Assembly: GCA_965208835.1 (NCBI GenBank)
Contig: OZ242358.1
Span: 832,001-896,000, forward strand
Source of the DNA: Candidatus Latescibacterota bacterium
GTDB lineage: Bacteria; Latescibacterota; UBA2968; GCA-2709665
DNA: 64,000 bases
Direction: 5' to 3'
Shown in pieces: positions 3,585 through 17,100 of this stretch. The notes under the pieces were generated by a model. The model saw only the letters and a program-made list of their open reading frames with translations. It made no database searches and was not told the DNA's origin. Each line of letters starts with the position of its first letter. Position 1 is the first letter of the stretch. The position numbers and the translations under genes were made by a program.

Positions 3585-3769
3585 GAAGCCGTTTTAAAAT
3601 TACCGGTGAGTTCCCGAGCGTGAGCGAAAAAGTGGCGGTCAAGGCGGGAAAACCCGCCTATGAGAGGCGAGCAAGCGCAGCCTCGATCTCGTAAGACGGG
3701 TGGGTTTGACCAACGCTGACCGGCGCCTTTGCAGCCGCGCGAAGACCGCTGGGAATTTTGAACGGCTTC
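3585..3769 (+). mobile_element. MITE (non-autonomous IS-derived element), full copy 1
   Basis: Terminal inverted repeats GAAGCCGTTTTAAAATT...AATTTTGAACGGCTTC, flanked by TAA on both sides; homologous inverted copy at 32735..32922. Confidence 0.85.
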
Positions 3770-3799
3770 TAAGCTCCAGCAGTCAATTTCCAGTGGGGC

Positions 3800-4285
3800 G
3801 GCGCCCCAATAACCGCTCCACGCTCCGTTTCCACGTCCCGCTCATCGAACCGGACGTGAGATTTCCCGCATCCGGCTCTCGGACCTGGAGGTCTCAGGTT
3901 CATACCAGCCTCACGGTTCTCGCTCCTTTGACGTTGCCCTTGAACCTGAACCACTTCCCTCCACCGGCGTTACCCGGCTTCAACGTTCCTACGGGCCTCT
4001 CCGCCATCTCACACACCCCGGCCTGACCCTCGCGGAATGCCGGTTGGTGTCTCCACACCACCGCCCGGGACCTCCTGTGTTCTGTCGGATCTCCCTGTGT
4101 ATGCATGCCGTCGCCATTACCCAGGCCGGACCAATGGATGCACGCGTTGCTGTCTTTTTGCCAACCACGGCTGCATTCCCCGATCGAAAGAAGAGTCGGC
4201 TCCCGAATTCCCTTCTTCGCGGCCTGCTGTAGCGTTCACGACGCGTTACGGCCTGCGTACTCGCGAGGCGCGTTGCGTCCTGACC
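3800..4285 (-). mobile_element. ORF-less, truncated group II intron remnant
   Basis: Minus strand has domain V (GAGCCGGATGCGGGAAATCTCACGTCCGGTTC, 3847..3878) followed by the start of domain VI, and a domain III-like segment (GCGGAGAGGCCCGTAG..GAAGCCGGGTAACGCCGGTGGAGGGAAG). No RT ORF lies between them. Confidence 0.8.
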
Positions 4286-4294
4286 TTGTGAAAT

Positions 4295-4425
4295 ACCTCC
4301 TCACGGTTCAGGGAGTTAGACGCCGTCTGCCGTAAGACACCCAACCGTCGGGCAATCCGTGCCTTCGGAACACCGCCTTCACGCAAATGCTTGATTTGCA
4401 TGGCCGTCTCCCGTAATATTATGAA
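4295..4425 (-). pseudogene. IS21-family transposase (IstA) N-terminal HTH fragment
   Basis: ILRETAMQIKHLREGGVPKARIARRLGVLRQT resembles IstA N-termini; no DDE domain follows. Confidence 0.6.
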
Positions 4426-4576
4426 TACGAGCCCTTCTGTGCTTTTTGGGATATCGTCGTATGGATACCCCTGGTATAGGCACACGCAGGGCTTCGCTTC
4501 GTATTGCTGCGATCTCTCCCCCCGGCCCCCTCGGAAGAAGCGATCAGCTATTGGCCGTCAGCCTAAAGCGGTCCAG

Positions 4577-4650
4577 CTCGTGCCGGAGGCAAGGAAGAAT
4601 AACATACCGGGCAAGGATCTATTCTCCCGTCTCCCGGCTACCCGCCTTCA
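4577..4650. repeat. Palindromic intergenic repeat family B, partial copy
   Basis: CTCGTGCCGGAGGCAAGGAAGAATAACATACCGGGCAAGGAT closely matches the sequence starting at 45790. Confidence 0.75.
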
Positions 4651-4737
4651 CGAGAGAAGTCAATGGAGTGGGGTCGTTTGGGAGTGGTGAGATTCTATTT
4701 AACGGACGTCTAAACGCAACCGGGAGGTTGATATCAG

Positions 4738-5712
4738 ATGAAGGTCTTGTACCTGAACGTACCAGGTATGCTCCAGCCATGGTACGACGATTTGAGAACG
4801 GCGGTTGGTGAAGTGCATGCCGTTTGCCTGTACGATCCCGCGAAACCCATGGCCGGGCAGTTCGATGGTGTGGACGTGGTGGTGGACCAGGGTGGTTCGG
4901 CAGGCACGCGGGCTCTTATCGACGCCGCGCTGGCTGCCCGCGTGAGGCTGTGGCAGGTGCTTGGAACCGGGGTGGACCACGTGGACGTGGCGTATTTCCT
5001 CGAAAAAGGCCTGATGCTTGCCAATACGCCCGGCCCGTTCAGCGCGGTGGCGCTGGCGGAGCACGCGATGTTTCTGATGCTTTATTTCGCGAAACAGTTC
5101 GACGAGCACGTGCGGAACCTCCGGGCGAAGGTGTTCTACTTTCCGGTGAGCGAGGAGCTGGAGGGGAAGACGCTCGGGCTTGTCGGGCTGGGCGCGAGCG
5201 GACAGGCGCTGGCGGCGAGGGCGAAAGCCATGGGAATGCGGGTAGCGGCCGTAGACGCTGTGGACGTCCCCCGGGAACGGCTGGATGAACTGGGGGTGGA
5301 AGTGTTTGCCGCGCCGTCGGAACTGGAATCGGTGCTCACGCAGGCCGATTACGTGTCACTGCACGTGCCGCTGACGTCGAAAACGCGTCACATAATCGAC
5401 AGACAGGCGCTGGCGGCGATGAAGCCAACGGCGGTGCTGATCAACGTGGCGAGAGGGGAGATCGCGGAAGAGGCCGCGCTCGTCGAGGCGCTGCAGAACG
5501 GGGGGATCAGGGGCGCCGGGCTGGATGTGTACGCCGAAGAGCCGCTGCCCGCGGACCATCCGTTTCAGCAGCTGCCGAACGTCGTCGCCACGCCCCATAC
5601 CGCGGGACAGACGTATGGCACATCCAGGAGGCGCGGGGAGGCCTGCGCGGAGAACGTGGAGCGGATCGCGAATGGGCTGGAGCCGTTGTACAGGATTACG
5701 GACGTAGGGTGA
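4738..5712 (+). CDS. D-isomer-specific 2-hydroxyacid dehydrogenase
   Basis: GLVGLGASG Rossmann motif, SLHVPLT, INVARG, LDVY..EP and TPHTAG motifs. Confidence 0.95.
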   Translation: MKVLYLNVPGMLQPWYDDLRTAVGEVHAVCLYDPAKPMAGQFDGVDVVVDQGGSAGTRALIDAALAARVRLWQVLGTGVDHVDVAYFLEKGLMLANTPGPFSAVALAEHAMFLMLYFAKQFDEHVRNLRAKVFYFPVSEELEGKTLGLVGLGASGQALAARAKAMGMRVAAVDAVDVPRERLDELGVEVFAAPSELESVLTQADYVSLHVPLTSKTRHIIDRQALAAMKPTAVLINVARGEIAEEAALVEALQNGGIRGAGLDVYAEEPLPADHPFQQLPNVVATPHTAGQTYGTSRRRGEACAENVERIANGLEPLYRITDVG

Positions 5713-5780
5713 GGTCGGCGACGGGATGTTGACTCCGGTCCGCGACCTTACTTACAGCCGCTCGTACCGCTAATCATGGA

Positions 5781-6413
5781 CTTGACCCGTTCTGTGGATG
5801 TGCCACAACGTTGGAGGCGGCGCACAGGCTGAAGCGTCGTTGGATAGGCATTGATATTGCGATCCATGCCATTAAGCGGGTTGCCGCCCTTCGGTTGCTT
5901 GACAAACTGGGACTTGTCGAGGGTGAAGACTATGCAATCGAAGGCGTTCCTCGTAATCTTGAGGGGTGTAGGGATCGGTGGCGACGGGATAAGTATCACT
6001 TTCAGAAGTGGGCGGTTGAACAGGTGGACGGTTTTGTGACGACAAGGCGTACGGGGGACGGCGGCATAGATGGCCGCTTGTATTCCGATTGTCCGGGAAA
6101 GCCAGACCTGCAATGCATGACTATCGAAGTTAAGGGTGGCGAAAATCCGAACATTACCGTTATGCGGGCTTTGCTCGGGGTCGTGGAAAACGGTCGCGCT
6201 ATGCTCGGCGGGCTGATTCTTCTGGAACCGATAGGTACGATTAAAGAGCGGAATTTCCGGAGGTTCATGGCCCAGGATGGCGAAGTGAAAATCGGCAATG
6301 TCGTTTATCCGAAACTGCAAATGTTGAGCACTCATGAGATCCTGGAGGGGAAACGCTTCGACACGCCTGGGGCGGTCGGTCGCGGGCTAAAACAACCACA
6401 ACTCCGATTATAG
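5781..6413 (+). pseudogene. 5'-truncated N4/N6 DNA methyltransferase fused to an Mrr-like restriction endonuclease domain
   Basis: In-frame LDPFCGCATTLEAAHRLKRRWIGID (SAM-binding motif I) from 5781, then DGGIDG...IEVKGG nuclease motif. The catalytic DPPF/Y half is absent and an in-frame stop lies at 5730. Confidence 0.75.
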
Positions 6414-6424
6414 GGAGCGAAGCA

Positions 6425-6724
6425 ATGAACGCGGATCAAATCAAGCAAATTATCGAATCCAATTTCCCCGAAATACGGTCAAAACGCCTCAAATATGGAT
6501 GGTCCTTTTTCTACAAAGAGATTGTAATCGGTCCAAACCCCTCTCGCATCGCTCGTGTCGAACAGAAGAGCTCAAATCGAAAAGTAGACTTCAAGCCTTC
6601 TATTACCGCCCGAAGGAAAGAAGACGAGACAATCAGGGAAGAGATAACCGACCAAGAGAGCCAGATTTGCGAAATAATAAGACGAGAAATAGATCTTTAT
6701 CTGGAGTATTATGCGAACCCGTAA
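6425..6724 (+). CDS. Hypothetical protein, 99 aa
   Basis: RBS GGGAG, AT-rich ORF directly after the methylase remnant; no recognised motif. Confidence 0.6.
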   Translation: MNADQIKQIIESNFPEIRSKRLKYGWSFFYKEIVIGPNPSRIARVEQKSSNRKVDFKPSITARRKEDETIREEITDQESQICEIIRREIDLYLEYYANP

Positions 6725-7153
6725 GCCCATAACTACTGATTCCGAATTTTAATTTAGGCCCCCCTTTACAAGAACTCTTTTGTCCGCTCTCCCAGGTCGC
6801 CTCCCGCCACCCTCAGAGGATCGCATACCTCGCCGACTTCCGTATATGGGAGCACCCGGTGGTGCTGCGGCCCGAAGCCGTTCTTTTTGAACTCCGCTCC
6901 AATGGCCTCGCCAGCCGGGTTGTCTTCCGTTTAGCCCTGCGACACCGCCGAACGCATCACCGCTCCGATTCGCCATCTGCACCGACGCGCCGTCTTCCGC
7001 TTCTCGTTCCAGAACGGGAGTATCACGTCCAATGTGTTAATCCGGTTCGCCGCCTCCCCCCGGAGTCGACCCCGAAGGAAGCCAGCCCCAGGATTCTACG
7101 AGCATCGCGTCTACGCAACACCTCGGGTCATGTACCGACGCAATACTGCACAT

Positions 7154-7182
7154 TTGCGCAGTTTCATGCAATGTGTTATATT
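7154..7182 (+). promoter_or_regulatory. Putative sigma70 promoter of the Ubl operon with an overlapping imperfect palindrome
   Basis: TTGCGC-17 bp-TATATT with a TG extension; overlapped by the inverted repeat CACATTTGC...GCAATGTG. Confidence 0.5.
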
Positions 7183-7210
7183 AAATGAGTGTTCGTGGCG
7201 GGAGCGAGAG

Positions 7211-7480
7211 ATGTCGGAAAAGGAACACAACGACATCAAGGAAGCGGCAAGCATGTCGTTATCGGCGAATGCGACGGATCTGGCATCGATGCGGGCGATA
7301 GTTGAGCCCATCACCGAATTGACACAAATCGTCGACCCTGATTCATCCGTGACGGGTACAATCTCCCGCGCCGGGATCATCACGCACGCCATTCGACAGG
7401 TTGGTCATCTGGTTCAAACACCGGCAGGACGGCGGTTGTTGACCGTAAGTGCAGGAATAGAAACCGACACAGAGACGTAG
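7211..7480 (+). CDS. Small hypothetical protein, possibly a ribbon-helix-helix regulator
   Basis: RBS GGGAG then ATG 7211; strand-helix-helix-like pattern (SMSLSAN...DLASMRAI...ISRAGIITHAIRQV); first gene of the operon. Confidence 0.5.
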   Translation: MSEKEHNDIKEAASMSLSANATDLASMRAIVEPITELTQIVDPDSSVTGTISRAGIITHAIRQVGHLVQTPAGRRLLTVSAGIETDTET

Positions 7481-7504
7481 TTACACCTAAAGGAGGAATC
7501 CAAC

Positions 7505-7798
7505 GTGGTGCAAGAACCTGGAAACGGCCATGGACCCGTCGGGCCGACGGGGATCGTAAAGGAATTGACCATTTTCATCAATGCTCGGTCGGCGCTTTGG
7601 GACAAGCCGACCATTAGCTTTGCGCAAGTGGTCGAACAGTGGAATAAGCTCGATCCGGATCGACGCGTGATAGGTGATCTTCCGGGCATCGACTGGACGG
7701 CGAAGGACGGAACGAAGGGGATTTTCTATCCGTCCGATAAACCAATGGACGTGGTTGATGAACTGTCGTTCACGATTGACGACTCGTACCTAGCGTAG
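7505..7798 (+). CDS. Ubiquitin-like beta-grasp protein (Multi_ubiq type)
   Basis: LTIFINAR...TISFAQVV...G.F.P...V.D.LSFTI pattern of multi-ubiquitin domains; strong RBS AAGGAGG; immediately upstream of an E1-like gene. Confidence 0.7.
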   Translation: MVQEPGNGHGPVGPTGIVKELTIFINARSALWDKPTISFAQVVEQWNKLDPDRRVIGDLPGIDWTAKDGTKGIFYPSDKPMDVVDELSFTIDDSYLA

Positions 7799-7806
7799 GG
7801 AAGACT

Positions 7807-8943
7807 GTGTCAGAACATGAGTCACGGGCACGTTATGAAGCGGAGCGGCGCGAATGGAAAATCGAGCGTCGAGACTTAGAAATAGGTGCATTAGGAGTAC
7901 CATGTTTTATCGCACCGAATGTCGCAGGTGAGTGTCACATCTGGGTAGGGACTGCATCTGACTCAGACCAACTCGAAGCGAACCATGAATGGCAGCAAGG
8001 TGCTTTACATACAGCAGATATACGAGGTCTTTCCGACGGAAGATTGTTCGACCGATCTGGAACGGAGTTAAAAAAAGGCGTGATTGGGCGTTTTCATTCC
8101 AGCCTTGTTCTATCGATCAAGATAAAAGGTCGAGAATATGAGAATGCATGGGAAGCACTAAACAACTACGTCAAACGGATATACGCGCTGTTCCTTGGCG
8201 GATCCGCATTGAGCGGGGAATCGGCGCCACGCCCTTATACATTCGATGTGCTTGGTGACCATCTGCCGGAAGCAGTCGAGTGGAGGGCTCTGGTAGCTCA
8301 AGAGCGTGTTGCGATTGTCGGACTTGGCGGTGTCGGCGCGTGGATAGCAGACTTTGTTGTCAAGGCCGATCCTCGTGAGGTTCATGGTTGGGACTACGAC
8401 TGCATAGAACCCAAAAACATACTTCGCATGCCAGGTGGACTCGATCCGAACGTCTGGATCGGTAGACCAAAGGCCGAGTGGTTCAAAGAGACCTACTCCC
8501 TCATCCATACGAACGTGCACGGCCACAATGTAAAGGTACTCCCTGAAAATGTGCAGGAGGTCATTGAAAAAGCGACTTTCGCTTTTTTGGCCGTGGACGA
8601 CGCTGATGACCGGATGATGGTGTGTGACACGCTGGCCAATGCGGCAATCCCGTTCATCGTGGCAGGACTCTCACCAGTGCGTAAGGACAAGAGAGTCAAG
8701 GTTTCCATGCGGATAGTAACCGCCCATGTCGGCGTGTCCTCTTGGAGAGAGGCTATCCCTCAAGTTGGCCAGGCGGGACAGGACGACTACGGCAGCCTTG
8801 ACTTGCCCGACGTCTACTCAATTGCTGCGGGTTGGGCGATTCAGTCGTGGCGAAAGATGCGCGGCCAATTCTGGCAGGAGAAAAGGGAAGAGTGCCTAGT
8901 CTATCGTGCTCGTGAGCAGTCTCTCATAGTGAGAGAGGTCTAA
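7807..8943 (+). CDS. ThiF/E1-family adenylyltransferase with N-terminal DUF6791-like (E2-like) domain
   Basis: VAIVGLGGVG, WDYDCIEPKNILRMPG, FAFLAVDD and C-terminal AIQSWRKMRG motifs; ~150-aa N-terminal domain ending SIK...YENAWEALNNYV. Confidence 0.85.
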   Translation: MSEHESRARYEAERREWKIERRDLEIGALGVPCFIAPNVAGECHIWVGTASDSDQLEANHEWQQGALHTADIRGLSDGRLFDRSGTELKKGVIGRFHSSLVLSIKIKGREYENAWEALNNYVKRIYALFLGGSALSGESAPRPYTFDVLGDHLPEAVEWRALVAQERVAIVGLGGVGAWIADFVVKADPREVHGWDYDCIEPKNILRMPGGLDPNVWIGRPKAEWFKETYSLIHTNVHGHNVKVLPENVQEVIEKATFAFLAVDDADDRMMVCDTLANAAIPFIVAGLSPVRKDKRVKVSMRIVTAHVGVSSWREAIPQVGQAGQDDYGSLDLPDVYSIAAGWAIQSWRKMRGQFWQEKREECLVYRAREQSLIVREV

Positions 8944-9019
8944 AGTGTGCTTTTGGAGATGGAGAAAGGAGGGGAAACGTGATTCTCATCCTAACTATGG
9001 TATTAGGAACCGAGAATCA

Positions 9020-9340
9020 ATGGAAATGAAGCCAGTGTTTGTTGAAACAATCCCACAAATACCCGAAATGGAAGAGGGGACACTTTACGTCAGCATGAGG
9101 TTCGCCGTCCTTTCCCACTTTTGTCCATGCGGGTGTGGTCGTTTGGTCGACGTGACGCTGAATCCTGCGACGCGTAGCCTGACCTACGATGGTGAGTATC
9201 TGACTTTAGAACCTTCAATCGGGGTCAAGTTCCCCTGTAGAAGCCATTACTCAATTATTCGGAATGCGATCATGTGGTACCCGCCCATCTCGGAACCGCA
9301 ACTCAGATGGTACAAACGTGTTTGGAATAGATGGAGGTAG
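9020..9340 (+). CDS. DUF6527-like metal-binding protein
   Basis: FVETIP...EEGTLYVS...HFCPCGCG...TLEPSIG...CRSHY.I.RN.I.W signature. Alternative GTG start at 8945. Confidence 0.85.
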   Translation: MEMKPVFVETIPQIPEMEEGTLYVSMRFAVLSHFCPCGCGRLVDVTLNPATRSLTYDGEYLTLEPSIGVKFPCRSHYSIIRNAIMWYPPISEPQLRWYKRVWNRWR

Positions 9341-9437
9341 TCAAGAGAAATGTCACTCTCTTTTTCCGGCAGATTTAGTCAGGACTCCGCCGCTCTCACT
9401 GTCTGTCCTCTCAGCATCTTGATTCGACAGGAAATCC

Positions 9438-10478
9438 ATGTCACTGAATGAAAACTTGCGAAAAGCCAGGCGGCAAAAGAACGACGAGTTCTACACACAG
9501 CTTTCCGACATCGAGAACGAGCTGCGCCACTACACCGGACACTTCCGGGGCAAGGTCGTGTACTGCAATTGCGACGATCCCCGCGTCTCCAGCTTCTTTC
9601 ATTACTTCTCGTACAACTTCGAGCACCTGGGCCTCAAGAAGCTTATCACCGCGTGCTACAGGAACCAGGAACGCGACCTGTTCAGCCGTCACGATTCGGA
9701 GCGGGCGATATGGCTAGAATACAAGGGGAACCCGAAGGGCGGCAGGGTGCCCGATGTTGGGGATATTGGAATCCGTGAGTTTGAAGGGGACGGGGATTTC
9801 CGTAGCGCGGAATGCATCGAGCTTCTGAAGCAGGCGGACGTCGTGGTGACCAATCCGCCGTTTTCGCTTTTTCGCGAGTACGTCGCACAGCTCATGGACC
9901 ACGCCAAGACGTTCCTGATTATTGGAAATGTTAATGCTATCACCTACAAGGAGATATTCCCATTGATTAAGGATAACAGGATGTGGCTTGGCCCGAGTAT
10001 CACGAGTGGGGATCGGGAGTTCGGGGTTCCCGATCATTACCCGCTTACTGCCGCGACGCACAGAATTGACGAGAACGGCAATAGGTTTGTTAGGGTCAAG
10101 GGAGTCAGATGGTTCACCAATCTAGACCACTCGAAGCGCCACGAGGACTTGATCCTCTACAAGCGGTACTCGCCGGAGGAATACCCGGCCTACGACAATT
10201 ACAATGCGATCAACGTGGACAAGACCGCCGACATCCCGATGGATTGGGACGGCGCAATGGGGGTGCCGGTCACGTTTCTAGACAAGTATAACCCGGAGCA
10301 GTTCGAAGTCCTGGGGATAACAGACAGGGACAACAACTCCGGTCTGAAAACGAAAGAATATACCTTGGCAGATGTGCCCAACCCCGGCGATCTGAATAGA
10401 AGGGGCGTTACGAGAGTTGGGGGCAAGCGTAAACCCACTTATGTTCGCCTTCTGATTAAGAGAGTGGTGCCCCAATGA
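9438..10478 (+). CDS. Adenine-specific DNA methyltransferase, EcoRI family
   Basis: KNDEFYT, VVYCNCDDP, GDGDFRS.EC, VVTNPPFSLFREY and MGVPVTFLDKYNPEQF motifs. Confidence 0.93.
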   Translation: MSLNENLRKARRQKNDEFYTQLSDIENELRHYTGHFRGKVVYCNCDDPRVSSFFHYFSYNFEHLGLKKLITACYRNQERDLFSRHDSERAIWLEYKGNPKGGRVPDVGDIGIREFEGDGDFRSAECIELLKQADVVVTNPPFSLFREYVAQLMDHAKTFLIIGNVNAITYKEIFPLIKDNRMWLGPSITSGDREFGVPDHYPLTAATHRIDENGNRFVRVKGVRWFTNLDHSKRHEDLILYKRYSPEEYPAYDNYNAINVDKTADIPMDWDGAMGVPVTFLDKYNPEQFEVLGITDRDNNSGLKTKEYTLADVPNPGDLNRRGVTRVGGKRKPTYVRLLIKRVVPQ

Positions 10479-11564
10479 AAATTGATCTGAACGAAATCAC
10501 AGTCCGCGACCTTGTGGACGAATACCATGACGACGGCGATGGCGGGGTGCGCGGCTATGGCGGCAAGCTCGACATCCGCCCGCCTTTTCAGCGCGAGTTC
10601 GTTTATAAGGACAAGCAGCGCGATGCGGTGATCGAGACGATCAACAAAGGCTTCCCGCTCAATGTGATGTATTGGGCCTTGCGCCAAGACGAAACGTATG
10701 AGGTTATCGACGGCCAGCAGCGCACGATCTCAGCCGCGCAGTATGTGATGGGCGACTTCTCCCTTGACGGGCGGTACTTCCACAACCTGCAAGACGACGA
10801 GCAGGAGCGGATTCTCAATTATGGGTTGCAGGTTTATATCTGCGAAGGGAACGCCAGCGAAAAGCTGGCCTGGTTCAGGATCATCAATATCGCGGGCGAA
10901 AGGCTGACCGACCAAGAGTTGAGAAACGCGGTCTATGCTGGAACGTGGGTGTCCGACGCGAAACGGCATTTCAGCAGGCCGAGGAGTCCGGCTTATTCAG
11001 TCGGAAACAAGTATGTGAAGGGCTCGCCGATCCGACAAGATTATCTTGAAGCCGCGATCCAATGGATCAGGGACGACGGCCAGACGGTCGAGGAGTACAT
11101 GGCCGCGCATCAGCACGACATGACCGCTACCGCCTTGTGGAGTCACTTCCAGTCGGTAATCAACCGGGTAGAAGCGGTCTTTCCGAACTACCGCACGCCA
11201 ATGAAAGGAGTGGATTGGGGCGGGCTTTACGGGCAACTCAAAGACGAGAGCTTGGACCCCGTAGCGCTTGAGGCCAAAGTTGCCCGACTGATGCTGGACG
11301 ACGATGTAACAAAGAACGCGGGCATCTACCCGTATCTGCTCACCGGCGAGGAGAGGCATCTCAATATCCGCGCCTTCTCCAACGCCATGAAGCAGAAGGC
11401 GTTTGAAATGCAAAACGGCATCTGCAAGTCATGCGGGGTGGCGTTTGAGATATCGGATATGGAGGCCGACCACATCAAACCTTGGTCGGAGGGAGAGCAA
11501 GACTGACGAACAGAACTGTCAGATGCTGTGCAAGCCGTGTAATCGCAGAAAGTCCAACAAATGA
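10475..11564 (+). pseudogene. DUF262 (ParB-like/GmrS) plus HNH endonuclease, with a +1 frameshift inside the HNH domain
   Basis: RPPFQREFVY and VIDGQQR DUF262 motifs, then CKSC...[11 protein letters not shown]. ORF stops at 11506, but the +1 frame continues [21 protein letters not shown] to a stop at 11564. Confidence 0.85.
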
Positions 11565-11751
11565 GCACGTTCGGATCTTGCCGGAGCGCAAGTGATTACC
11601 GGGCTAGAGCGCGTTCCAGACTGGTGCATTTTACCTTTACTTTTGTGACAAGGTCAAGTATATTTATTGGGAATATATCTTGGATTTTCTCTTATAGGCA
11701 AAGAACGGCGCTCTCCAATTGCGCTAAAACATAATTGGAAGTGGGGTTCGG

Positions 11752-11824
11752 TGGAACTGACGGGATTCGAACCCGCAACCTTACGCCTCCCAAGCGCACG
11801 CTCTACCAATTGAGCTACAGCCCC
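11752..11824 (-). tRNA. Atypical tRNA: anticodon GGG (Pro) on an Ala-type acceptor stem
   Basis: Complete cloverleaf: GGGGCTG TA GCTC AATTGGTA GAGC G TGCGC TTGGGAG GCGTA AGGTT GCGGG TTCGAAT CCCGT CAGTTCC A, followed by CCG (full CCA not encoded). Confidence 0.88.
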
Positions 11825-11840
11825 ATTGCTTTCTTTGCAG

Positions 11841-11871
11841 TCCCGAAGGGTGTTTAGGCCACCCTTCGGGA
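11841..11871. other. Perfect 12-bp stem-loop between the wHTH gene stop and the tRNA 5' end
   Basis: TCCCGAAGGGTG-tttaggc-CACCCTTCGGGA; no U-tract on the minus strand. Confidence 0.6.
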
Positions 11872-11874
11872 TCT

Positions 11875-12390
11875 TTATTTATCTGCTTCTCCCTCCATCT
11901 CTGGAATAAAACCAGGTGGTTCCAACTTGATTAATTCATCGGCCGATAACGAGTATTGACCATAGCCGTGTTTAACAAGAACGCCTTCTCGTACTAAACG
12001 CCTTAGGAACGTCCCTGAATATTGAGGCTTAAACTCAGAAGGTTCAATGCCATTTGCTATTGCGTATTCACGAAATCCCGCAGGAGTTATGGGTCTGCCG
12101 CCGTTAATTATCGCAGGACCAACAAGAAGTCGAAGTTTGGTTGCTAGACCTCGTGAAGGCTTTTTCTCGGGTTTGGCAGCCTCCAAAGGGGCGTCACCAT
12201 AGCTTTTTGGGTTTTTCCGCACAACCGGGACCATTAAAGAAGAGAATTCTTGTCCATACATTCCTTTGACAAGTGAATGGATTATCCTTTCCATTAGTAC
12301 GGCTTCCTTTAACCGACTTCCACGGATCTTAAATTCAAATTCCACGTTACCTGAAGAAATTGCGATTTTAATATCAGGGGAATCTTCCAT
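11875..12390 (-). CDS. Hypothetical protein with a probable C-terminal winged-helix domain
   Basis: Low-GC ORF; GRPITPAGFREYA...YSGTFLRRLVREGVLVKHGYGQYSL fits a wHTH recognition helix and wing. Start uncertain (12390 or 12450). Confidence 0.6.
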   Translation of the reverse strand: MEDSPDIKIAISSGNVEFEFKIRGSRLKEAVLMERIIHSLVKGMYGQEFSSLMVPVVRKNPKSYGDAPLEAAKPEKKPSRGLATKLRLLVGPAIINGGRPITPAGFREYAIANGIEPSEFKPQYSGTFLRRLVREGVLVKHGYGQYSLSADELIKLEPPGFIPEMEGEADK

Positions 12391-12826
12391 GTCCGTCTCC
12401 GATGGTTTTGATTGTCCGTCTATGTCCGTCCAAAAATACAAAAACAACAATCCAGGCGCAAGTCTTTTTTGATGCTGTCCGTGGTTTCACCAAAATCCCG
12501 CGTCCAAGTTACAAGATTTCCGGAGGGTTATTGTAAAAGCCCTGTATCCGACCATCCCTTCGCACACCTCACGCGTCGTATCCGGGCGTTCCGCCGTCCA
12601 ATCCCGAAAGCTCGACCGGAACCCCGTGCGGCACCGCACCGAAGGGGACGCCAGTCCCGAGCCCTCCTCGAGTCTCCAGCCACCGCATTTGCTTCCTTCT
12701 TACTTTGATTCCAAACATCCCTCACCCCCCGGACAAAAACCATCGCCCCGGGCGGTACGCCGGGTCACGATTCTCTTATGACGAGCCTGGATCGTGAACT
12801 ATGATCATGTTGCCCCGGTGCACTTG

Positions 12827-13206
12827 CCCTGAGCGTGTCGAAGGGTGGCGAAGAGAGGTGAAACGCTGGCACTCGGACAAAGGCGTACCGAGGACCTCGC
12901 AGTAAACGACACATCGAGGCCGTATGTTGCGGCGGATGCTGGGTGATGATTGTCCGACGCAGGGCACCCTGGGAGGGGGTTTTTGTCGCGAAGGCAGGGT
13001 TGACACCGTGAGGCGCAGCTCTCGGCAGGTTTGGGAGACGAGTTATAATCTATTCCCATTTGGAATATAATCTATTTCGACTATTCGCTTTTGTATTGAA
13101 TTGGATTTGGCTTAATTGAGTCCGGCTGTTCTGCGGTATTGCACGAATTGCGAAGTTGCCGCACCTGGTCGAAGAGTATCTGAACGTGGGCATTTCGACA
13201 AGCTCA
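12827..13206. repeat. REP-like motif family C (TGAGCNTGTCGAAG), two copies in opposite orientation
   Basis: CCCTGAGCGTGTCGAAGGG at 12827 and TTCGACAAGCTCA at 13194; further copies at 46394 and 46460. Confidence 0.55.
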
Positions 13207-13489
13207 ATGGCCACGCATTGAGACCGTTTCTTCGACAGGATAGGCACAGGCAGAGACCGAATCTCGACGTACACAACGCATTGAAGGCTTTTTGAACTCT
13301 TCGGGACCTTGGTCTGATTCTACGTGACAATTCCCATGAAGAGTTCACTAAGACAATTCTCTTCAACGTTAGATGAATCGTACACCGAGCGTGTCATGAA
13401 GTCATTCAGTGTGCTTCGCATGCAGTTGTCTGAAAACGTGGCCAGCAGGATGATCGTATTCTGAGGTCGAACATGATTGAGAGGCTTTC

Positions 13490-14104
13490 ATGACTGAGGA
13501 CGACTGCCTGCCCGCGGGGCTTATTGGGTTTGACACTCGTGGGTTTTTCGAGGAAACTGCGAGTCTCACCGTCGATTTGGCTGAAGGAATTCGCAAATCG
13601 AACGTGACGTTGCTTTGGCTCGTTATTCTTTCTCATAATATGCTCCAGAGTGCAATGGCAAATGTGCTGCGTGGAAGCGCCAATATTGGTGCCCTGGACG
13701 AAAAATCGCAAAAGGATCAGATCAGATGGTTGAATGAAATCCGCGCCGGAAATGACACTGCTGAACCGGAAAGGCTGCCTCATCTCGCTGACTTTAAGAC
13801 CCTCCTAAAACGTGTTCGAGATAGGCAAAGCCTATGCCCACCATTGCAATTGAATCAGCAACAGTTAAAGGATCTGGATTCACTGAACAAATTCAGGAAC
13901 GACTTCATTCACTTTATCGACTCCATCTGGACCGTGCATGTTGACGATCTTCGACAACCCATCCTCGCTGCCCTTCAAGTCACTGGTGAAATCATACAAC
14001 ATCCTGAATGCAGGCGCTGGACATGGGATGAGTGCTTTCGAGATCGGGTCAACGGGTATTTGATGAAGATAAGGAACCACGTTGATAGTATGGATGAGTG
14101 CTAA
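13490..14104 (+). CDS. HEPN-motif protein (putative RNase)
   Basis: Mostly helical ~200-aa ORF with an RxxxxH motif (LNKFRNDFIHF) in the usual C-terminal position. Confidence 0.6.
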   Translation: MTEDDCLPAGLIGFDTRGFFEETASLTVDLAEGIRKSNVTLLWLVILSHNMLQSAMANVLRGSANIGALDEKSQKDQIRWLNEIRAGNDTAEPERLPHLADFKTLLKRVRDRQSLCPPLQLNQQQLKDLDSLNKFRNDFIHFIDSIWTVHVDDLRQPILAALQVTGEIIQHPECRRWTWDECFRDRVNGYLMKIRNHVDSMDEC

Positions 14105-17100
14105 TCTGTGAGGAAAGTGAATTGAACCGTGAAATAGAACTGGATCGGAAAGACGTATGGCCCGCGGGGCGTGAGCCCACGGCGCTGGGTGAACTGGCCC
14201 GGATGGAGATTGCGAAGCACATCTGGGACAGCCGCCAGAGTTCCAAGCTGACCGGATTCGAGTACGCAAAGCGCCGGGGAACGCGAAATATGATGGATCC
14301 CTCCCGCCCTCATCTGGATCGGCCGCGGGGACGTACGCGCGTCTCCGCGTTCTGGACCCGTGAGGCGCTGGTGGTTTCGGCGGCATGCGAAGGTCGGACA
14401 GATGGTGAAGACCGCATTGTCGTGGCGATGGTGACTGCGGGAGACCGGCTTCTGCAGTTGGAGTGTCTTTCAGATGGGACCGTCCGGTTACCCGACGGCG
14501 CGGCGCGGGCGGAATTCGATACGGATCAGGCAGACAACGGCTGGTCGGCGCGTCTGACGGTGCCCTGGGGCCTGCTCGGCATTCGTCCCCGGCCCGGGCT
14601 GCAGATTCCCCTGAACGTCGCCCGGTTTACGGATTGGACGGATACCCCGCCTCCCGCGATGTTACCCGACGGATTCGTGGTCAACGGTCTCTCGCGCATC
14701 CGGCCCGGTCTGGAAGTGAGTACGCTGAGCCGGGCGGTACGGTATCCGATCGTCGGCGATCCGCTTCGGGCCGAAAGATTGGGCCGCCTGGTGTTGAGTC
14801 CGCGATTGAAGATCGAGAACCTGAGCCTTCGCGACGAGGGTCTGGCACGGAAAGAAGTGGTGATGAATCTGCGACCTGCGGGCCGGCGGCCTGAATTGCT
14901 GGACGTACGCGTCGCGCTTTCGGATCCCTGCGGACGCGAGACCGTTTTCGTGGACCAGGCACGGGGCGAGGGCGAAACGCGGATTCGGTTGGACTGCCTG
15001 TTCGGTGCGTTCAGGGGCTTCCTGTATCCATACCGGCTCGCGGTCTCGGTTTCCGATCCAGACACCGGCGCGATGCTGGCGGAAGCGCAATGCGAGTTCA
15101 TCCCGCCCCGGCGGATCCGCCTGGACCCGCTGCGCCTGGGCAACGATCAGCGTGGACGCTGCCGATTCCGGATGGCCGGGAACGGTCTCTGGGGCACGCG
15201 GTGGCAGGCGTCCCTGGTGAACGACGCGGGCGAGACGCTGGACAGGGGCAGGGTCGTTGCGGATTCGGACGAGACGGACTTTGATATATGTATCGGTGAA
15301 GTGCCAAGGGGACGTTACAGGCTGCGCCTCGTGCCCGTCGGAATGGGCGCGACGGCCGGTATCGAATGCCCCTGCAACGTCATGGGTACCAGTCCGCACC
15401 CACGCGTTCTGCTGCGCCGCGGGAACGTCGATCGGCTGAGGGCGCAGGCAAAGGAAGGGGGCCTGAAGCCGCACTATGACGCGATGAAGGCGCAGGTGGA
15501 CGAGGTGCTTCGGCGCGGGACAATTAAGGAGTGCAGCCTCACGCCCGATGCGACGGAGATCCGCGAGATCGCAATCGACGACCTGCTCGCCGGGAACGAC
15601 CTGCTGATGCAGGGTCACGCGGAGGATACGCTGTTTCAGCGGGACCCTCACCAGATGATGGCTGCGTCGCTGGTCTATCTGATCGAGGGAGACGACCGGT
15701 ACGGGCTGCTCGCCCGAAAGATGGTCCGGATACTCGTGGAGCACGTGCTCTGGGGAGACCCGAGGGTGTACGGTGCGGACCCTGACCTGATGTGGAAGGC
15801 GATGTACTGCGCGCTGGCGATGGACTGGCTGGGCGACCTGATCCCGACGGATGAACGCAGGGTACTCAACGATCGGCTGATCGAGAACGGGCTGCTGGTG
15901 TACCTGTGGGCCATGGAAAACGACCAGGCCTACTGGAAGGGGAGGATTGCAAATCTGACGCCGATTTCGGACAGCGTGGCGACCGTGCTGGCGCTATGCC
16001 TCCGGGATGAAGCGTTGGACGCGGAAGCCGTTCTCAGGATTGCCCGGGAAGACATCGGAACGCCGATGCGCGCGTTTCCGCCCGATGGGTCCTGGCCGGA
16101 ATCCGTCAACTACTGGGCGGTGTTCCTGCGCGGGGTCATACTGCACGGCGCGGCGATGGAGTCCGCAACGGGCGCGGACGACGGCGTATTTTCATTGCCG
16201 GGCATGCGCGACGCGGGCTATTTCCCCATCTATTTTACCCCGCGCGGTGTTCCGGCGGGGTTCAACGACGGCATGAACACCGGGGCGGCACCTTTTCTGC
16301 ATCTGCTGGCGCGCCGGTATGACGAACCCATTTTCTCGCTCTACGCCGACGCGTACGGCGGCGCGGGCGAAAACAGGCGTTCCGACTGGAATACGATAAT
16401 CTGGCGTTCCCCCGGGATTCCCTATCAGCACCAGGCGCCGCGCACCGACGTGGGCGACAGGCCGACGCCGGCGTTGTTGAGTTCCATAATGACGGGTTTG
16501 AAGCGCCTGCGGGTCTACGAGGAGATCCGGTGGGCCGCGCTCGCCTCGGAATGGCCCGATCCGGAGCTGTACGTGTCGTTCAAGAGCGGATACGCCGCTT
16601 CCGGTTTCGGACATACGAGCCGGGACCTGAACGCGATCCAGGTGGTGGCCGGAGGAGAACCGCTGATCCGGCGCAGCCACGACTACAGTACGCCGCCGGA
16701 GGGATACAGCACCACGCTGGTGGACGGCAAGCCGCAGGGGCCGGGAACGGGGACGTTTCTGTATTGGGAGGAGGCGCCCCGGCATCTGGCGATCGCGGCG
16801 GAAGCGGACGGATCGTTCGGAGAGGATGTCGGGCGGGCACGGCGCCACGTCGTCATGGTCGACGGGCGGTACCTGGTGGTAATGGACGAAGTAAGTAGTG
16901 ACCGGCCGGTCCGGGTGACGTTCATGGCGCATACGGCCGGAGAAGTCGCCAACGCGGATCGGGGTTGCGAAATCAGGGGAATCAAGACAAGACTGTCTCT
17001 GGCGTTTTCGGGAACGGATGTGACGCTGGACCGCGTCGCGTCTCCGGACTGCGTGATGACGCAGCTCACCGACGGGGCGCTGCACGCCACCACTGATGTG

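Follow-up and report, generated by a model that had tools for sequence, protein, structure and literature searches.

A probable Type II Bub operon with an alanine-terminated ubiquitin-like protein and a clade-specific fourth gene in a Latescibacterota genome

Operon identity and the ubiquitin-like protein BubA

In a stretch of 64,000 nucleotides (nt) from the genome of a Candidatus Latescibacterota bacterium (GenBank assembly GCA_965208835.1, contig OZ242358.1, positions 832,001–896,000; hereafter the window), four co-directional genes at 7211–9340 very probably constitute an intact but diverged Type II Bub operon (formerly 6E.2/DUF6527), encoding the ubiquitin-like protein (Ubl) BubA, the E2-E1 fusion BubBD and the DUF6527 protein BubE, preceded by a small gene designated orfX (Table 1). 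The ‘6E/DUF6527’ operons were renamed Bub by Ye, Gong, Chambers and Corbett (bioRxiv 10.1101/2024.11.21.623953), and in the main text of that preprint a Type II system is defined by a BubA Ubl, a BubBD E2-E1 fusion and a BubE DUF6527 protein, ‘typically’ without a JAB peptidase. The open reading frames (ORFs) of the window follow the same gene set, with the Ubl first, then the E2-E1 fusion, then DUF6527, and no JAB. A first-pass annotation made from the sequence alone had described four tightly spaced genes, all of which are present with the motifs quoted for them and are separated by gaps of 24, 8, and 1 nt, and the arrangement is not a matter of chance, as the same four-gene cassette recurs in 9/9 related metagenome loci and in one congeneric genome (G013). 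The annotation had likewise assigned the genes to a Ubl/E2-E1/DUF6527 operon; the assignment stands, while the accompanying view that such operons have no established function does not, since Bub conjugation is described in the preprint (10.1101/2024.11.21.623953, main text).

What is new at the locus is a diverged clade, a C-terminal Ala, and a clade-specific fourth gene, orfX, that has been shortened by ~50 residues in this genus. To our knowledge, no ubiquitin-like pathways other than the Bub systems dispense with thioesters, and the locus adds to them a compact, diverged example with a single-domain Ubl of 97 amino acids (aa). Both the conjugation chemistry and the deconjugase role of DUF6527 have already been published (10.1101/2024.11.21.623953), and the locus opens no new category. 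Literature searches on DUF6527, Bub, and bacterial oxyester ubiquitination-like systems found Bub only in two preprints from the Corbett laboratory (10.1101/2024.11.21.623953 and 10.1101/2024.11.21.623966).

Table 1. Coordinates of the Bub operon, its domains and the adjacent annotated features (window positions)
Feature	Position	Strand	Description
orfX	7211–7480	+	89 aa, length counted from in-frame ATG
bubA (Ubl)	7505–7798	+	97 aa, tail FTIDDSYLA
bubBD (E2-like/ThiF fusion)	7807–8943	+	378 aa
bubBD, N-terminal E2-like domain (putative)	7807–8256	+	residues 1–150; putative catalytic S103, accessory H68 and K105
bubBD, C-terminal E1 adenylation domain, ThiF fold	8257–8943	+	Gly-rich loop, R207, K222, D264, crossover-loop Y328
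bubE (DUF6527)	8945–9340	+	131 aa; ...SHFCPCGCG...FPCRSH
EcoRI-type adenine methylase (PF13651)	9438–10478		E = 1.7e-142
GmrSD_N/HNH enzyme	10475–11506		PADLOC REase_II E = 8.8e-133; overlaps methylase by 4 nt
tRNA-Pro(GGG)	11750–11824	-	Rfam 66.9 bits

A Ubl without a β-grasp fold had been named by the first-pass annotation as a refuting outcome, and structure prediction supports the β-grasp. The AlphaFold2 (AF2) model of BubA, built on an alignment of 101 sequences, has a mean predicted local distance difference test score (pLDDT) of 84.1, with residues 1–19 disordered and a core in the β-β-α-β-β-β order of the β-grasp. The top Foldseek match of the model in the PDB was 9cd2_A (E = 2.2e-3, probability 1.00, TMq 0.56, 75 columns), with other β-grasp proteins ranking below it; phmmer of BubA against PDB sequences returned chance-level matches only. 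Entry 9cd2 is the multi-ubiquitin protein of E. coli ZDHYS365, a Type II BubA and the protein shown to undergo conjugation (10.1101/2024.11.21.623953, main text). The alignment of the window protein to Type II BubA domains extends through its final residue, an Ala where those have Ser.

The Ubl lacks a C-terminal Gly, as had been noted in the first pass; its last Gly is G72 and the final 25 residues, ending in Ala, are Gly-free. Within the subfamily of the window protein (79 proteins at E ≤ 0.001, the window protein included), 70 tails end in SYLA, one in SFLA, and four in SYLS, with four further tails aberrant or truncated. A wider Type II set of 80 loci was drawn from a contig scan with the BubBD alignment, for which the retrieval pattern requires GGTG, and the Ubl ORFs of these loci were located by a hidden Markov model (HMM) from upstream tails, with seeds that end in Ser and a search that is blind to the last residue. 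A Ubl lay directly upstream of BubBD in 74 of the 80 loci (four of the remaining six are at a contig end), and its last residue was Ser in 72 cases, Ala in one (L028), and Gly in one (L010, with an atypical tail). The crystallised E. coli BubA chain ends in ...TQTDKS. Because 72/74 Ubls and the conjugation-competent E. coli BubA end in Ser, a non-Gly, unprocessed C-terminus is the norm among Type II systems, and the C-terminal Ala is, as judged from the tails, a minor variant of that norm. The missing C-terminal Gly, catalytic Cys, CxxC motif, and JAB peptidase are all usual for Type II Bub and not an anomaly of the window copy, so that the weight placed on the missing Gly, JAB, and CxxC in the first pass has to be given up. 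A precedent for Ala exists in Type II CBASS (cyclic-oligonucleotide-based antiphage signalling system), for which a commentary on Jenson et al. (PMC10449767) describes a conserved C-terminal Gly or Ala in the CD-NTases. No statement of a Ser-terminus rule for Type II BubA was found in the main text of either Corbett-laboratory preprint, and Ye et al. (10.1101/2024.11.21.623953) use neither ‘C-terminal serine’ nor ‘terminal serine’ in their main text. The Ser rule and the Ala clade would widen the range of C-termini accepted by E1-like enzymes.

Predicted conjugating enzyme and deconjugase, and proposed pathway

The C-terminal part of BubBD matches Pfam ThiF (residues 165–289, E = 5.6e-14), with a nucleotide loop of the form G172-x-G174-G175-x-G177, and the top PDB match of the BubBD family profile is Citrobacter BubCD (E = 8.3e-12); a match of BubBD to MoeB was obtained at E = 0.0035. 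A phmmer search of the whole library yielded 562 representatives (E ≤ 0.001), of which no more than 10 reached E ≤ 1e-30, and the N-terminal domain lacks the Pfam DUF6791 match found in 101/110 family members, both of which bear out the first-pass impression of a divergent copy. The window protein was aligned (MAFFT, n = 110) with 109 matches of 360–430 aa taken from the best 150 of the 562, and its identity to all but one of these 109 is 17–29% (closest, 48%). Conservation in the alignment is nonetheless high at the columns of H68 (110), R207 (110), K222 (110), Y328 (108), Y121 (107), S103 (105, with Cys in the other five), and K105 (87).

These columns can be tied to the published E. coli numbering because one family member has the aligned residues exactly at S106/R219/Y342, with the others within a few positions; the equivalence of S103 to E. 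coli S106 is inferred from the alignment columns. The substitutions R219A, S106A, and Y342F each abolish ATP-dependent conjugation by E. coli BubBD, and in Bub enzymes Tyr and Ser oxyesters replace Cys thioesters (10.1101/2024.11.21.623953, main text). By column alignment, the published oxyester catalytic set (H68, S103, K105, R207, Y328) is complete in the window BubBD. The first-pass annotation had instead proposed a catalytic Cys in VPCF or GECH, which the family does not support: the C33 column (Tyr 84, Cys 7) and the C43 column (Gly 94, Cys 11) are not conserved, and S103, H68, K105, and Y328 are. Its remark that the ThiF domain is free of CxxC is correct, as Cys occurs in BubBD only at positions 33, 43, 199, 273, and 363, and a CxxC after residue 200 is present in just 2/110 family members. 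A C43-type Cys is conserved within a BubBD sub-group (11/110) that includes the window and the ...EHVS-type relatives. Given the five representatives with Cys at the S103 column, the E2 step may proceed through a thioester in some Type II-like systems.

A complex of BubBD residues 150–378 with BubA was predicted together with three controls, using our own alignments, and its model scored 0.72 compared to 0.00 for the best control. This mark is reached by 58/80 solved complexes and 2/110 mismatched pairs, rates that are only rough when own alignments are used. Agreement between runs is at least 74% in contacts, with a partner pLDDT of at least 80. In the model the BubA tail (residues 92–97) is set against BubBD residues 172 and 174–177 of the Gly-rich loop, 261–264, and 286–291; whether the Ubl tail enters the adenylation site had been put forward as a check in the first pass. 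The predicted interface shows likeness to an E1-Ubl adenylation complex; as similar complexes have been solved (Citrobacter BubCD-BubA), the model indicates resemblance and not binding.

In the Ala-terminated clade, as noted for the window loop (8320–8337) and for L082–L090 and L097, the Gly-rich loop reads GGVG or GGIG (10 clade loci), and it reads GGTG in 101/110 representatives. Covariation between BubA's C-terminal residue and the Thr-to-Val/Ile change in the loop was considered and is not established, given that L028 combines Ala with GGTG and that the retrieval pattern behind the 80 loci requires GGTG. A link of the loop change to the Ser-to-Ala switch is speculative and is contradicted by L028.

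BubE matches Pfam DUF6527 (E = 2.6e-16) and its gene is present downstream of bubBD at each of the 89 related loci; phmmer of BubE against PDB sequences gave chance-level matches only. Across 91 aligned sequences C60, C62, C64, and C98 are kept in 89–91 and H101 in 90, and the Ser-to-Cys and Cys-to-His spacings (7 and 3) equal those of S92/C99/H102 in Citrobacter. The suggestion in the first pass that DUF6527 acts as a deconjugase agrees with Ye et al. (10.1101/2024.11.21.623953, main text), in which BubE, a Ser-His protease, has a C4 zinc site and clears conjugates, and the residues concerned are kept here. By homology, the window BubE is a putative zinc-binding Ser-His deconjugase (C60/C62/C64/C98; S91/H101). 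The S91 column holds Ser in 74 of the 91 rows and Pro in 15 more, most of these belonging to the clade with ...EHVS Ubls; Ye et al. (10.1101/2024.11.21.623953, main text) call the Ser invariant. Judging from the displayed rows, the Pro seems to reflect an offset of one column, with Thr replacing the proposed catalytic Ser. The BubE motif is PTGG, as opposed to PSIG, in the clade with ...EHVS Ubls (L002–L005, L009, L011, L013, L016, L021, L025, L026, L036, L041, L048, L056). An alternative in-frame ATG for bubE occurs at 9020, and residues 3–25 are conserved in relatives.

The pathway proposed for the window proteins is carried over from biochemistry on homologues in E. coli and Citrobacter. 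In a BubBD dimer, the E1 half would bind BubA and adenylate its free C-terminal carboxylate (Ala97 here; Ser in most Type II BubAs), after which the acyl group would pass to the crossover-loop Y328 as an oxyester, then to S103 of the E2 domain with the aid of H68 and K105, and finally to a lysine of a target protein. BubE, stabilised by zinc and acting through S91/H101, would cleave the conjugates and restrain the pathway. A JAB peptidase or other pre-processing would be dispensable, since the reactive end of BubA is already exposed upon translation. A Pfam neighbourhood scan covering the 18 ORFs of window positions 1–22300 agrees with the first-pass statement that no JAB gene is present, as no JAB family was matched among these ORFs (PF01398 not searched), and the single Prok-JAB (PF14464) match of the genome lies ~750 kb past the window end. 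The likely role, offered as a conjecture, is antiphage or stress defence.

Several observations weigh against the assignment to a working Type II Bub operon. The BubA match to Pfam Multi_ubiq (PF14452; E = 2.9e-4, 21.4 bits) falls below the gathering cut-off of 24.5 bits, and a C-terminal Ala in Bub is known from sequences alone. For BubBD, the absence of a DUF6791 match in the N-terminal domain is compounded by an hhalign comparison of the window-clade domain with DUF6791-type N-terminal domains, which gave a probability of 0.37% (E = 0.16) with a shallow query profile. As the direct DUF6791 comparison was not significant, the E2 assignment draws on column conservation in the MAFFT alignment, the position of the domain, and a weak transitive link, in which residues 1–150 match P0084 (E = 6.6e-10, full-library scale) and P0084 matches DUF6791 below the cut-off (E = 2.2e-4). 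The best three Atlas feature matches of the domain are DUF6791 clusters (0.80–0.81), a lead only, and residues 1–150 are here treated as a putative, weakly assigned E2-like domain. Further, the E. coli and Citrobacter systems that supply the biochemistry are outside the window clade; the defence role is conjectural because none of the Bub operons tested gave phage protection (10.1101/2024.11.21.623953, main text); and orfX is truncated and under relaxed constraint, so that regulation or any orfX-dependent function may be impaired in this copy.

Compared with characterised systems, the operon is closest in layout to the Type II Bub of E. coli ZDHYS365, with which it shares gene order and content, the lack of a JAB, a putative E2-E1 fusion in which Ser, Lys, His, and Tyr replace Cys, a predicted Ser-His protease of the DUF6527 family that has a C4 zinc site, an exposed non-Gly Ubl end, and a setting in an accessory, defence-like segment. 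The two differ in that the E. coli BubA has 222 aa, three β-grasp domains, and a Ser end, whereas the window BubA has a single domain and ends in Ala, and in that the window adds the upstream orfX and has an E2 domain that Pfam DUF6791 does not detect. The Type I Bub of Citrobacter sp. RHBSTW-00271 (BubAB/BubCD/BubE; PDB 9ea4, 9ea5, 9ea8) shares the homologous E1 domain, the Tyr of the crossover loop, the Ser of the E2 domain, and a BubE, but there a Ubl-E2 pre-protein is cut after a conserved Gly by an E1-fused JAB, whereas the window has neither JAB nor Gly and a different fusion pattern.

Bil and CBASS likewise use E1/E2-type conjugation tied to phage defence, and Cap2 is also an E2-E1 fusion, but both depend on catalytic cysteines and a JAB peptidase, which the operon lacks, and the target in Type II CBASS is a CD-NTase and not a β-grasp Ubl. 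Type II CBASS (Cap2/Cap3) was rejected as an identity for the operon, with no CD-NTase or JAB among the neighbours and only weak matches to the PADLOC E1-E2 models, confined to BubBD residues 155–288 of the ThiF region (best E = 6e-8). A Bil operon, by the definition that Ye et al. quote (10.1101/2024.11.21.623953, main text), was rejected for the absence of a JAB and of a conserved Cys and for the single ThiF domain fused to an E2-like domain. In the ThiS/ThiF and MoaD/MoeB pairs a ThiF-fold adenylation domain also acts on a β-grasp C-terminus, but with neither an E2 domain nor a DUF6527 partner. The ThiS and MoaD carriers end in Gly-Gly and their E1 enzymes carry CxxC zinc motifs; with a ...SYLA tail and no CxxC in the window, a sulfur-carrier identity was set aside.

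The clade-specific gene orfX, selection and rival readings

The gene immediately 5' of bubA, orfX, appears to be a clade-specific accessory gene from which the C-terminal Cys/His module has disappeared in the window genus. It occupies this position in 9/9 close metagenome loci and in G013, and was found in 0/80 other Type II Bub loci. A full-length copy (137 aa, locus L086) has 85 homologues, mostly of 136–142 aa, with a putatively helical N-terminal half and a conserved module of the form H-x4-C...C-x2-C. The window copy is ~50 residues shorter than these relatives, and the stretch it is missing includes the nearly invariant H100/C105/C126/C129; the G013 copy is likewise short (83 aa) with a C-terminal end that differs from that of the window. 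The window protein and three full-length relatives had no Pfam match even at E ≤ 10, Atlas scores were ≤0.78 with an RHH_1 cluster at rank 8 only (0.76), and the AF2 model is poor (pLDDT 63, predicted template modelling score 0.40). A ribbon-helix-helix-like N-terminal half is our impression only. A regulatory role for orfX is possible, and the gene could provide a handle on regulation or targets of the pathway.

Selection was gauged by the ratio of nonsynonymous to synonymous substitution rates (dN/dS) from the single pairwise comparison of the window with G013 (synonymous divergence, dS, ~0.2–0.25), which is indicative only: 0.12 for BubA, 0.23 for BubBD, 0.29 for BubE, and 0.67 for orfX. 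On this indicative evidence the conjugation core is constrained by purifying selection and the orfX remnant much less so.

It was considered whether the cassette is a decaying or inactive remnant that is being lost and no longer conjugates. The ~50-residue deletion in orfX, its elevated dN/dS, and the unequal C-terminal ends of the congeneric copies (89 and 83 aa) could be taken this way, as could a truncated methylase/Mrr-like ORF (5811–6413) at the island border. The three core genes, however, are full length with no internal stops, encode all of the catalytic residues, and have remained constrained over the divergence from G013, and decay is accordingly held to be very improbable.

A second possibility is a functionally distinct third Bub lineage, in which the Ala-terminated Ubl, a re-modelled E2 domain, and orfX (as an adaptor, E3-like factor, or sensor) change the targets or the chemistry. 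The restriction of orfX to the close loci and G013, the near-invariance of its Cys/His residues across the 85 homologues, the N-terminal domain of BubBD that escapes DUF6791, the GGVG/GGIG loop of the clade compared to Thr in most representatives, and the almost invariant ...IDDSYLA tail are all in keeping with such a lineage. Yet the catalytic residues on which the ordinary pathway relies are all kept, and Ala and Ser look interchangeable, since the ordinary Type II Ubl of L028 ends in Ala beside a GGTG loop and 4/79 clade members end in Ser. The core also does not appear strictly dependent on orfX, as the Cys/His module was lost in the genus while the three core genes stayed under purifying selection, and the AF2 model of orfX is of low confidence. 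A functionally distinct lineage is for these reasons considered quite unlikely, and the operon is preferably read as an ordinary, though diverged, Type II Bub system. The narrower proposal that the ...SYLA clade forms a Bub lineage of its own, in which full-length orfX (~138 aa) couples the Ala-Ubl pathway to a signal or target, is rather unlikely; if true, the window genus would be a natural experiment in which the orfX module has been deleted and the conjugation core kept.

Distribution and genomic context

Of the 30 related genomes searched, one, G013, has a close orthologue of BubBD (89% identity), located at the syntenic site and with the adjoining restriction-modification (R-M) pair, and four more had distant BubBD-like or ThiF-only matches. 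With a presence in 1/30 related genomes and a low GC content (0.51–0.54 in the cassette segment vs ~0.62 in the flanks), the cassette is accessory. A scan of a viral contig collection for BubA returned no relative, and a phage origin is thus not supported. Other BubBD-type genes were noted at G013:C2:86529–87137 (-), G003:C31:32775–33407, and G027:C1:2280547–2281161 (26–28% identity, in frames of 396–411 aa), so that G013 possesses a distant BubBD-type gene besides its orthologous cassette.

Directly downstream of bubE, where the first-pass annotation had placed an R-M-like pair, are a methylase gene and a GmrSD_N/HNH gene (Table 1). This Type II R-M pair stands beside the Bub cassette in the syntenic congener G013 and is absent from 9/9 related metagenome loci, which rules it out as a component of the Bub system. 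No CapW/BrxR or CapH and CapP regulator was seen at the locus, and a promoter and terminator scan of 6700–11900 gave no sites above shuffled sequences and none 5' of orfX. Neither convincing direct repeats flanking the low-GC segment nor an integrase was seen, and a search of 4500–15000 for att-like direct repeats of the tRNA end found none.

On one side the cassette is flanked by a 2-hydroxyacid dehydrogenase gene and the truncated methylase/Mrr-like ORF, which has 200 aa, a methyltransferase-like C-terminal motif at its start, and a weak Mrr_cat match (E = 0.035). A 99-aa ORF of no family (6425–6724) comes next, and the segment 5768–7055 has no counterpart at the syntenic G013 locus and may be a remnant at the island border. 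Further out, ~1.1 kb between a cobW-like gene and the dehydrogenase gene (3600–4700) holds short overlapping ORFs only, with no Rfam match at gathering thresholds. On the other side a terminator-like 13-bp hairpin (11840–11872) adjoins the tRNA-Pro(GGG) gene. In the low-GC stretch past this tRNA are a 191-aa ORF without a family (11875–12450, -) and a 204-aa ORF (13490–14104) with a weak Cthe_2314-like HEPN match (E = 0.0014, below the cut-off).

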